DNA of 42,324 nt from Escherichia coli. Lineage in GTDB: Bacteria > Pseudomonadota > Gammaproteobacteria > Enterobacterales > Enterobacteriaceae. Location: NCBI RefSeq assembly GCF_003334785.1, contig NZ_QOWV01000024.1; one strand, 5' to 3'. Positions 15,001-18,000 of this stretch are shown here, piece after piece (position 1 is the first letter of the stretch; each line of letters starts with the position of its first letter). Made by a program: the position numbers.

Positions 15001-18000
15001 GTAGCCAGGCTACCAATTGGGGTAATTTTCGGTCCCAAATCGCAGCCAATCACATTGGCATAAACCATCGCTTCTTTGATAACGCCAGATGCCGTGCTGC
15101 CATCAATGGACAACGCGCCAACCAGTACCGTCGGCATATTGTTCATAATAGAAGAGAGGAAGGCGGTGAGGAATCCGGTGCCGAGCGTCGCGGCCCACAG
15201 GCCGTTATCCGCCAGCACGTTGAGTACGCCAGAAAGATATTCCGTTAATCCGGCATTGCGCAGGCCATAAACCACCAGATACATGCCGAGCGAGAAGATG
15301 ACAATCTGCCAGGGGGCACCGCGCAGGACTTTACCCGTATTAATCGCATGACCGCGTTTAGCGACGACAAATAATATCAGCGCGCCCACAGCTGCAATGG
15401 CGCTCACCGGAATGCCGAGCGGTTCCAGGACGAAAAATCCCACCAGCAGAAGCAGTAAAACAACCCAGCCAGTTTTGAACGTAGCAGGATCTTTGATCGC
15501 TTCTGCGGGAGATTTCAGCAGCGCCATATCGTAGTTCTGCGGAATATCTTTGCGAAAATAGAGATGTAACATCACCAGCGTGGCAACAATCGCGGCGATA
15601 TCCACCGGCACCATCACCGAGGCGTATTCGCGAAAGCCGAGGCCAAAGAAATCAGCGGAAACGATATTCACCAGGTTGGAGACAATAAGCGGCAGGCTGG
15701 CGGTATCGGCAATGAATCCGGCCGCCATCACGAACGCCAGCGTAGTGCCTTTACTGAACCCTAAAGCCAGCAGCATGGCGATGACAATCGGTGTCAAAAT
15801 AAGCGCCGCGCCATCATTGGCAAACAGGGCGGCAACGGCAGCACCGAGCAGGACAATCCAGGTAAACAGCAAGCGACCACGACCATTACCCCAGCGTGAG
15901 ACGTGCAGCGCCGCCCATTCAAAAAAGCCGGACTCATCCAGCAGCAGGCTGATGATAATGACGGCGATAAACGCAGCCGTCGCGTTCCAGACGATATTCC
16001 ACACCACCGGAATATCACCCGGATGGACCACGCCCGTAACTAACGCCAGTACTGCGCCGAGCGTTGCACTCCAGCCGATGCCTAAACCTTTCGGCTGCCA
16101 GATAACCAATACGATGGTCAGGACAAAGATAGCGCCTGCCAGTAACATAATGCCTCCCGGATAAAACACATCTGAAAATTCATATGTGTTTAGCTAAATT
16201 TTTAACTGCAAATGTTCTTACTGTCCCCGGAACAGTTTTGTCGAGCCAGGTTGCGGACAATCGCCTGAACCTTTTCCTGTTCACATCGCCAGGCCTCATC
16301 AATAATTTTCGCCGCCCATGCTGGAATATGCGGTGATAAGCGGTAATGAACCCACTTACCTTGCTTGCGGTCCAGCAATAGCCCGCTTTCACGCAGCAAT
16401 GCCAGGTGGCGGGAGATCTTGGGCTGCGACTGGTCGAGAGCAGTGCAGAGATCGCAGACGCATAACTCTCCCAGTTCGCTGAGCAGTAAAACGATGCCCA
16501 GACGGGTTTCATCAGCAAGAATTTTGAACAATTGGATGGGTAACAGAAATGACATATTGCGCTCCTGATTGTTGCAGGTAGTGTCTCTCTTCGAAGCGGA
16601 TAAGTCAAAAACATATATGACTTAACGAATGTGTAAGTGCAGAGGAAGGTAATAGGTGTGAATTTTGAGTTGGCTATTCATTTGAAAGGAGGTCTGAATC
16701 AGGACGTAAAAAAACCGACTTTGCGTCGGTTTTTTACTTTCCAGCCCTGAGTTGGTGGCTCTGGCTGGAGTGAGAGAGTTCTTATCTAACAGCTCAATAC
16801 TATTAGCCAGTGGCTAACATTGCAAGAATTAGCGATTTCTTCAGCTGGCGGAGGGAGCACTTCGGTATATATCGCAGTGACGATTTATATACTTTCACTG
16901 GGTCATCGTCATATTAAGCCTTGTCCGAATCCGGATGTAAAAAAACCGACTTTGCGTCGGTTTTTTACTTTCCAGCCCTGAGTTGGTGGCTCTGACTGGA
17001 GTGAGATAGCCATCATCTAACGCATCAATGCTAATACCATACTGAAACTATTGCAAGGACGTGCTGGTTTTATAACCTGCATGTACTGTATGATTATCCA
17101 GTTAGCTCTGAGGCATTTTCACTCTGGCAATGCGCATAAACGCTTTCAAAGTCCTGGTCAGAAGTACGGGTGGTGCCGTTAACTGATGCTCTGGCCGGAG
17201 TGAGAGAGTTCTTATCTAACAATGAGACATGCGCCGTGACAGGCAGTGGATGAGTAAGCGGATGCATTCTCACTCCATCGCATGGAGAAAACGGGTGATT
17301 GATAAAGCAATCATCGTTCTAGGGGCGTTAATTGCGCTGCTGGAACTGATCCGCTTTCTGCTTCAGCTTCTGAACTGATAGCGGAAACGTAATTAAGGGC
17401 TAAGAGCACACTACTCTTAGCCCTTTAACATTTAACGCATTGTCACGAACTCTTCTGCCGCCGTTGGGTGAATGGCGACGGTATTGTCGAAGTCTTTTTT
17501 GGTTGCCCCCATCTTCAGCGCCACCGCGAAGCCCTGCAACATTTCGTCCATACCAAAGCCAATGCCGTGAATACCGACAATCTTCTCTTCCGATCCAACG
17601 CACACCAGCTTCATGCGGCACGGCTGGCGGTGAGTGGTGACGGCGGTATACATCGCGGTGAAAGAGGATTTATACACTTTCACCTGATCGTCGCCATACT
17701 GCTCGCGCGCCTGCGGTTCCGTTAAACCAACAGTACCAATCGGCGGATGGCTGAAGACCACGGTCGGAATGTTGCTGTAATCCAGATGCTCATCCGGCTT
17801 GTTATTAAACAGGCGTTCAGAGAGACGGCGACCCGCTGCAACTGCCACCGGTGTCAGCTCCACTGCACCCGTGTTATCGCCCACCGCGTAAATACCTTCA
17901 ATATTGGTGTTTTGATATTTATCGACGACGATATAGCCTTTTTCGTTAGTTTTAACGCCAGCGGCTTCCAGGTTGATGTTGTCATTGGCAGGCTCGCGAC

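Follow-up and report, generated by a model that had tools for sequence, protein, structure and literature searches.

The intergenic region between arsR and gor in the 42,324-nt stretch of Escherichia coli DNA analysed here (contig NZ_QOWV01000024.1 of assembly GCF_003334785.1, hereafter the window) is almost certainly the chromosomal dinQ-agrAB type I toxin-antitoxin locus of E. coli K-12, in which dinQ on the plus strand encodes a short hydrophobic toxin and agrA and agrB on the minus strand encode small repeat-derived RNAs. The intergenic stretch (16560-17431) is identical to that of E. coli K-12 MG1655 at 872 of 872 nt, and the same segment is 100% identical in many E. coli genomes, K-12 strains included. 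It was matched in 5423 of 5426 complete genomes, with dinQ as an annotated feature in all chromosomal records among the matches listed. On a larger scale, window positions 14583-19583 correspond to MG1655 3645500-3650500 in reverse complement and agree with it in 4999 of 5001 bases. The sole differences in these 5 kb around dinQ-agrAB are two single-nucleotide polymorphisms, at 14757 (past the end of arsB, on the arsC side) and at 18073 (in gor), and judged by these the source of the window is a close relative of MG1655 and not MG1655 itself.

Genes, gene order and strands are all those of dinQ-agrAB in MG1655 (b4613, b4712 and b4713; Weel-Sneve 2013, PMC3567139; Kristiansen 2016, PMC5066626), from which the locus does not differ, and no sequence feature in the window contradicts this explanation. 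Weel-Sneve 2013 found dinQ, agrA and agrB in the arsR-gor region and mapped the RNA ends by northern blot, primer extension and 3' mapping (PMC3567139), while Kristiansen 2016 used selective 2'-hydroxyl acylation analysed by primer extension (SHAPE), in vitro translation, gel shift and RNase III assays (PMC5066626). The locus, its transcripts, start codon, toxicity and antisense mechanism are hence already published, and it is present in RefSeq, Rfam, NCBIfam and T1TAdb. What we obtained here are sequence identity, family membership, complementarity, covariation, start-codon conservation and the fold of the primary transcript, while transcription, processing, translation, toxicity and RNase III cleavage are drawn from the literature.

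For the window itself nothing is added to knowledge, and the finding is right but ordinary. Its value is that of a positive control: a reader without tools recovered a GTG-initiated toxin gene of fewer than 30 codons and its trans-acting antisense RNAs from raw sequence. This original prediction named the genes of a known type I toxin-antitoxin system correctly and in the right order, with all coordinates exact or 1-2 nt off. The checks that it proposed, i.e. transcript ends, start-codon assignment and toxicity of the different peptide forms, had all been carried out and published in 2013 and 2016 (PMC3567139, PMC5066626).

Two agr genes and their pairing with the dinQ leader

The elements that make up the antisense side of the locus are the following.

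16706-16791, minus strand: agrB, small antisense RNA gene, the antitoxin in K-12 (Rfam RF02891, 108.4 bits; MG1655 annotation at 16708-16789)
16937-17022, minus strand: agrA, small RNA gene, paralogue of agrB (Rfam RF02891, 106.2 bits; MG1655 annotation at 16939-17020)
16797-16825, minus strand: agrB promoter TTGCAA-N17-TAGTAT (pattern search)
17028-17056, minus strand: agrA promoter TTGCAA-N17-TAGCAT (pattern search; PMC3567139)
16709-16735, minus strand: rho-independent terminator hairpin of agrB, AAAAAACCGAC-GCAAA-GTCGGUUUUUU (inverted repeat, fold, Rfam consensus structure)
16940-16966, minus strand: terminator hairpin of agrA (inverted repeat, fold, Rfam alignment)
17188-17221, plus strand: AgrB target site in the dinQ 5' untranslated region (UTR), the third repeat copy, containing leader element 2 (repeat finding, pair count, covariation)

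Repeat finding returned two direct repeats of 114 nt each (16692-16805 and 16923-17036; 88% identical), and a 34-nt family with three copies, located in agrB (16758-16791), agrA (16989-17022) and the dinQ leader (17188-17221). Relative to the agrB copy, the agrA copy is 79% and the leader copy 97% identical. Three copies of one family, the third in the leader at 17189-17221 and closer to agrB than to agrA, were exactly what had been predicted. The idea that the leader holds a complete, diverged third copy of the 231-nt repeat unit was rejected, as the similarity ends at the core of 33-34 nt. The Rfam AgrB family RF02891 covers both long repeats over their full length at 108.4 and 106.2 bits (gathering score 40), and, as is typical of the DinQ/AgrB family, both copies are encoded on the minus strand, at distances of 322 and 553 nt upstream from where dinQ starts and without overlapping it. 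A weak plus-strand match to the same family (16879-16969; 26.6 bits, below gathering) seems to owe its score mostly to the agrA terminator, which is palindromic; the agrB terminator hairpin is likewise palindromic and usable in both directions. The pattern TTGCAA-N17-TAGYAT has exactly two matches in the window, both on the minus strand just upstream of the long repeats, with 0.02 expected by chance, and in both RNAs a U run comes after an 11-bp hairpin that has a 5-nt loop (fold and Rfam alignment), so that the promoter-like elements and terminators assigned by the original prediction stand. The agrB transcription start has been mapped by primer extension (PMC3567139).

The complementarity of AgrB to the dinQ leader is far beyond chance. 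Counted without gaps, the first 34 nt of AgrB (16791 down to 16758) form 33 of 34 Watson-Crick pairs with the leader, the remaining position being an A·C mismatch, and this duplex has an energy of -61.2 kcal/mol, while shuffled 34-mers against the dinQ mRNA reach -22.3 ± 2.9 kcal/mol (minimum -32.2). Pairing of the small RNA's 5' end over a long stretch of the dinQ 5' UTR is a feature of the DinQ/AgrB family. Duplex energies and pair counts refer to this 34-nt core; full-length RNAduplex runs of each Agr RNA against 200 nt of leader were abandoned because long interior loops inflated the energies. The published count is similar, with 30 of 31 positions paired for AgrB and 25 of 31 for AgrA (PMC3567139). 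Experiments on this exact sequence have demonstrated that a small RNA neutralises DinQ (PMC3567139, PMC5066626), and three point mutations in the AgrB pairing site restore ultraviolet (UV) resistance in an agrB mutant (PMC3567139).

Pairing is also maintained in evolution. A covariation test was set up with ten loci from E. coli lineages, E. albertii, Escherichia sp., Citrobacter, Pantoea and a plasmid, each row joining an agr 5' end to its own leader site. In this alignment 94.7% of the cells were paired and 13 of the 34 pairs had changes on both sides, values that none of 500 shuffles reached, and slid controls gave 33-39% paired. As the two sides are homologous repeats, this complementarity could have been preserved either by gene conversion or by independent compensation. 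The single A·C mismatch lies between window position 17196 (dinQ C96) and 16766 (AgrB A26), and this mismatch recurs at the same position in five of the ten loci (pair 26-47). The leader base is located inside element 2, and it may be constrained by the intramolecular pairings 1:2 and 2:3 described below.

AgrA pairs less well, with 26 Watson-Crick pairs, 4 G·U pairs and 4 mismatches at -45.6 kcal/mol. This is still well beyond the shuffles, the agrA promoter and terminator are intact, and full-length dinQ RNA is 3-fold up in an agrA mutant (PMC3567139), all of which would fit AgrA as a second working antitoxin in this strain, with two antisense RNAs controlling dinQ. We regard this as improbable, given that in the presence of AgrA the Shine-Dalgarno region keeps its SHAPE pattern and the processed dinQ RNA is translated in vitro as before (PMC5066626). 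The two antisense RNAs of the original prediction thus exist as genes, but in K-12 only AgrB binds the processed (+44) dinQ RNA and blocks its translation (PMC5066626). AgrA is a paralogue of AgrB whose pairing with the leader of this strain is most likely too poor for it to act.

The DinQ peptide and its start codon

Two open reading frames (ORFs) share the dinQ frame.

17295-17378, plus strand: dinQ coding sequence with GTG start, 27 aa, (M)IDKAIIVLGALIALLELIRFLLQLLN, a toxin with a single transmembrane helix (MG1655 b4613; NCBIfam NF041472)
17229-17378, plus strand: 49-aa ORF, the longest in this frame, with ATGs at 17229, 17250 and 17262; the extension is not conserved and not part of the native product

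The native product is the 27-aa form, initiated at GTG 17295, ended by the stop at 17376-17378 and translated from the processed +44 mRNA, and the question of its start is settled in the literature. Its 27 codons encode a strongly hydrophobic peptide (grand average of hydropathy, GRAVY, +1.79), which belongs to the equivalog family toxin_DinQ (NF041472; 54 bits with a cut-off of 30, E 1.4e-14). A hydrophobic ORF of this length, starting with GTG downstream of a LexA box and hidden from the ORF track, had been predicted, and indeed the frame is called, in its 49-aa form, only if the ORF cut-off is lowered to 20 aa. The DinQ peptide was localised to the inner membrane (PMC3567139).

The original prediction considered the start ambiguous. 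The three upstream ATGs are there and in frame, but the ambiguity did not hold up. It is very improbable that the native toxin is a longer form of 49, 42 or 38 aa from ATG 17229, 17250 or 17262, even though the 49-aa frame is open and, from an expression vector, peptides II-IV are both produced and toxic (PMC3567139). Peptides II-V are all toxic, yet the only dinQ transcript translated in vitro was the +44 RNA, with a product of the size of peptide V, the 27-aa GTG form, and an agrB mutant regains UV resistance through a chromosomal Lys4-stop, the numbering of which begins at the GTG (PMC3567139). The 22 residues upstream of the GTG are strongly hydrophilic (GRAVY -1.84), and the NCBIfam model spans only residues 2-23 of the 27-aa form. 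Furthermore, a start codon at the position of 17295, either GTG or ATG and with GGAG upstream, is found in 16 of 16 related loci, with ATG in place of the K-12 GTG in the Pantoea and plasmid homologues. Conservation does not extend to the upstream ATGs: in Citrobacter and the plasmid homologue the frame is interrupted by a stop four codons before the start, E. albertii has lost ATG-I and Escherichia sp. E1V33 ATG-III. This pattern supports the 27-aa product independently of the experiments.

Transcription of dinQ and the leader switch

Published numbering was mapped onto the window with +1 at 17101, G88-A119 at 17188-17219 and the Shine-Dalgarno bases G184-G187 at 17284-17287 (PMC5066626), which places the elements of the dinQ transcript as follows.

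17084-17103, plus strand: LexA operator, overlapping the dinQ -10 element TATGAT (17089-17094) and the transcription start
17101-17428, plus strand: primary (+1) dinQ transcript, ~330 nt, translationally inert (PMC5066626 numbering)
~17144-17145, plus strand: +44 processed 5' end of the dinQ RNA (PMC5066626 numbering)
17116-17128, plus strand: element 1 (PMC5066626 numbering)
17194-17206, plus strand: element 2 (PMC5066626 numbering)
17267-17278, plus strand: element 3 (PMC5066626 numbering)
17284-17287, plus strand: Shine-Dalgarno sequence GGAG for the GTG start, sequestered in the +1 RNA (fold; PMC5066626)
17395-17425, unstranded: convergent terminator shared by dinQ and gor, a hairpin of 12 + 12 complementary nt, 14 pairs by scan (inverted repeat, terminator scan, PMC3567139)

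The pattern TACTGT-N9-CAGT matches the window once, at 17084-17102 (TACTGTATGATTATCCAGT; 0.05 expected). The matching sequence has the operator form that is characteristic of the SOS regulon, namely CTG-N10-CAG with flanking TA/AT, and overlaps the promoter. The heterology index of the dinQ LexA box is 4.83, and LexA binding as well as UV induction of dinQ have been reported (PMC3567139). Five dinQ RNAs are known, of which the +44 species alone is translated (PMC3567139). Pairing of elements 1:2 and 3:4 keeps the Shine-Dalgarno sequence of the +1 RNA shut, whereas in RNA that has lost element 1 the 2:3 pairing can form and the sequence becomes accessible. AgrB shuts it again and guides RNase III to cut, which AgrA does not do (PMC5066626). 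The minimum free energy (MFE) fold of the +1 RNA reproduced the published 1:2 duplex (17116-17128 with 17194-17206) as well as the 3:4 Shine-Dalgarno hairpin (17273-17278 with 17282-17287) base for base.

Taken together, the locus would almost certainly work as follows. LexA at 17084-17103 represses the dinQ promoter, and after DNA damage the ~330-nt primary mRNA is made from ~17101. This +1 RNA would be untranslatable with element 1 pairing to element 2, leaving element 3 free to hold the Shine-Dalgarno sequence (17284-17287) closed in a hairpin. Once the first 44 nt are removed, element 2 could pair with element 3, which would open the Shine-Dalgarno sequence, so that the hydrophobic peptide of 27 residues could be translated from GTG 17295, insert in the inner membrane, depolarise it and lower ATP. 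AgrB, made constitutively from the opposite strand with its 5' end at ~16789-16791, would pair through its first 34 nt with 17188-17221, which would both re-close the hairpin and create an RNase III substrate.

Several observations weigh against this account of the locus. The MFE fold of the +44 RNA lacks the published 2:3 duplex; it does open the Shine-Dalgarno hairpin, but the ensemble unpaired probability of the Shine-Dalgarno sequence is just 0.20 on average in the +44 RNA, compared with 0.05 in the +1 RNA. The abstract of PMC5066626 assigns the processing to the +44 end to no particular enzyme. Moreover, a generic sigma-70 scan made no call at either agr promoter and a simple terminator scan made none at the agr terminators. 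The promoter hexamers each agree with TTGACA/TATAAT at 4 of 6 positions, giving 8 of 12 with a scan threshold of 9, and are weak by consensus, and the terminators were probably missed because the A/U runs were absorbed into the stem. We judge that the missed calls stem from these thresholds and this absorption and are not evidence against the agr elements. That the repeats are a neutral tandem duplication of intergenic DNA without transcripts of their own, for which the silence of both consensus scans might speak, has practically no probability left: the Rfam matches far exceed the gathering score, leader pairing is kept via compensatory changes across genera, and the detection of both RNAs by northern blot and primer extension has already refuted it (PMC3567139).

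The best-matching agr copy differs among strains

The agr copy that best matches the leader is not the same in all strains, and in many E. coli strains it is the proximal one. The variable part of the pairing region is a core of ~9 nt at ~17205-17214 of the leader (agr cores at 16775-16784 and 17006-17015), which reads GAGTTCTT in K-12 and AATGCCATT, TAGTCGTC, AATACCATT, AATGCCCAC or TAGTTATC in other lineages, and is quite different in Pantoea and on plasmids. Cores were compared across loci L006, L013, L021, L022, L024, L027, L028, L030 and L031. Among loci with two agr copies, the leader matches the distal copy in K-12-type strains and strain CT282, while it matches the proximal copy, i.e. 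the one at the agrA position, in E69, BS15R-A, E2865, MS 119-7, NCCP 13963, S1-IND-02-A, strain 134 and O157:H7. In the proximal-matching strains other than strain 134 the proximal duplex has energies of -54 to -61 kcal/mol versus -44 to -49 kcal/mol for the distal one, and in several proximal-matching strains the distal copy is identical to K-12 agrB and has 6 mismatches to its own leader. In all two-copy loci sampled, the leader core is that of one of the agr copies of the same locus.

An 81-nt agrB segment identical to K-12 was found in 2651 complete genomes, while the K-12 leader allele was present in 1665 and a leader 95-99% identical to it in a further 381, so that at least ~600 genomes carry K-12 agrB together with a different leader. 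Given this difference in partners, the description of agrA as a gene that 'has partly degenerated' (PMC3567139) may, as far as the sequences tell, be true only for the K-12 lineage. We consider it about equally likely to be right or wrong that the K-12 picture of AgrB as the antitoxin is lineage-specific and that specificity was re-assigned between agr paralogues, plausibly by gene conversion, the second copy having come from a tandem duplication that dragged a piece of gor along. T1TAdb picks the more stable of the two predicted antisense RNAs. In the open-access literature searched, we found no mention of the partner difference or of the gor relic described below.

A relic of gor, deletion alleles and probable annotation artefacts

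The locus is flanked by two genes on the minus strand, and a fragment of one of them lies between the agr copies.

16202-16555, minus strand: arsR, flanking dinQ-agrAB
17432-18784, minus strand: gor, flanking dinQ-agrAB on the other side
16844-16913, minus strand: unannotated relic of the gor coding sequence, 70 nt, flanked by the agrA terminator on one side and the agrB promoter on the other and corresponding to about nt 1087-1162 of gor (~codons 363-388)

Local alignment of the relic to gor scored 50 (shuffles 21.9 ± 2.0), and its translation, YDDDPVKVYKSS, resembles the corresponding segment of Gor. It may extend to the 3' arm of the agrA terminator. The relic occurred in four of four two-copy loci examined, best kept in E. 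whittamii (score 71), and was absent from the single-copy loci scanned (L002 and L004). A search for gor-like sequence in the dinQ leader and promoter gave a score of 10 (shuffles 10.7 ± 1.2), with the same outcome downstream of agrB, and these candidates were discarded. The position of the relic between the agr copies suggests that the agr copies go back to a tandem duplication of a larger segment that extended into gor. In the simplest model that we infer, the duplicated segment would have run from gor codon ~352-362 through agr, followed by internal deletion of the rest of gor and of the second dinQ copy.

Some loci have a reduced architecture. A single agr copy is present in L002 and also in L004, L019 and L020, consistent with a 231-nt deletion. 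Two fusion alleles, L003 (FDAARGOS_1267, 1612-1700) and L023 (09-02E), have lost 199 nt through recombination between the agr 34-mer and the leader 34-mer. Both promoters, that of agr and that of dinQ, went with this deletion, as did the LexA box, and in both alleles arsR and arsB are also missing and arsC adjoins the locus.

Hypothetical proteins of 57-71 aa are annotated by RefSeq/PGAP over this region in some genomes (window 17094-17273 on the minus strand; L020 830-1003, L024 1095-1268 and L031 804-1019). One kind of call is antisense to the dinQ leader and the other covers agrA and the gor relic, as does the 71-aa hypothetical protein in strain CT282; the Gor-like stretch in the latter kind is due to the relic. 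These calls are probably spurious.

All these side observations are modest and unverified leads, which might be of use for the study of type I toxin-antitoxin evolution. Partner change, deletion alleles and the gor relic point to an antisense specificity that can drift and be re-assigned among repeats. Elsewhere in the window, three other small RNAs scored above the Rfam gathering threshold, all on the minus strand: GadY (1308-1421; 150 bits), ES205 (7200-7271; 105 bits) and ES036/CssrF (25798-25838; 42 bits).

Relatives and comparable systems

One genome per species was scanned with an exact 20-mer from the dinQ N-terminus, which recovered loci in E. coli, E. albertii, E. whittamii, Escherichia sp. 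E1V33, two Citrobacter, two Pantoea and two metagenome bins. Nearly all of them carry AgrB-family RNAs on the opposite strand. A further, seventeenth exact match, L015 in Megasphaera, was a chance match inside an unrelated ORF of 332 aa and was discarded. A tblastn search with the 27-aa peptide against plasmids gave no matches, probably owing to the short, low-complexity query. The plasmid homologue was first found via a 33-nt match, and a DNA query from that locus then returned 433 plasmid records in PLSDB. The plasmid dinQ-like (dql) loci occur on plasmids of Escherichia, Salmonella, Klebsiella and others, and 243 of the 433 records are predicted to be conjugative. The example analysed in detail has this form.

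L005 1519-1953 (plasmid p23GD35035_P5): dql locus with one agr-like RNA, an ATG start and a different pairing core

The plasmid loci are the published dql genes dqlA and dqlB (Kristiansen 2016; agrB-dqlB of the IncX3 plasmid pOXA-484, PMC12317039), which Enterobacteriaceae carry on chromosomes as well as on plasmids. Like dinQ, they encode a 27-aa peptide with the same MIDKAIIVLGAL... N-terminus, and their single divergent agr-like RNA (Rfam 61.6 bits) resembles agrB, its 5' end pairing with the leader ~108 nt upstream of the start through 30 Watson-Crick and 2 G-U pairs of 34; the spacing of the GGAG is as in dinQ. Unlike K-12 dinQ, they have an ATG start, a single agr copy and another pairing core, and lack the gor or arsR context. 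The K-12 LexA box sequence was not found at the promoter of one plasmid dql example. The dql loci are further set apart from K-12 dinQ by their role in plasmid stabilisation.

A second comparable system is tisB-istR-1. Like dinQ, tisB encodes a LexA-controlled small hydrophobic toxin of the inner membrane, and its primary mRNA is inert and activated by 5' processing. IstR-1, like AgrB, is transcribed divergently and made constitutively; its pairing site in the 5' UTR is far from the ribosome binding site, on the upstream side, and the paired RNA is cleaved by RNase III. IstR-1 blocks a ribosome standby site. The two systems probably belong to unrelated sequence families, and the likeness claimed is functional only. 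A general Rfam scan of 15500-18800 gave no IstR match (E up to 1). The similarity of dinQ-agrB to tisB-istR-1 as SOS-induced type I toxin-antitoxin systems has been stated by the authors themselves in an abstract (PMC3567139). Unlike IstR-1, AgrB acts by forcing the Shine-Dalgarno hairpin closed (PMC5066626).

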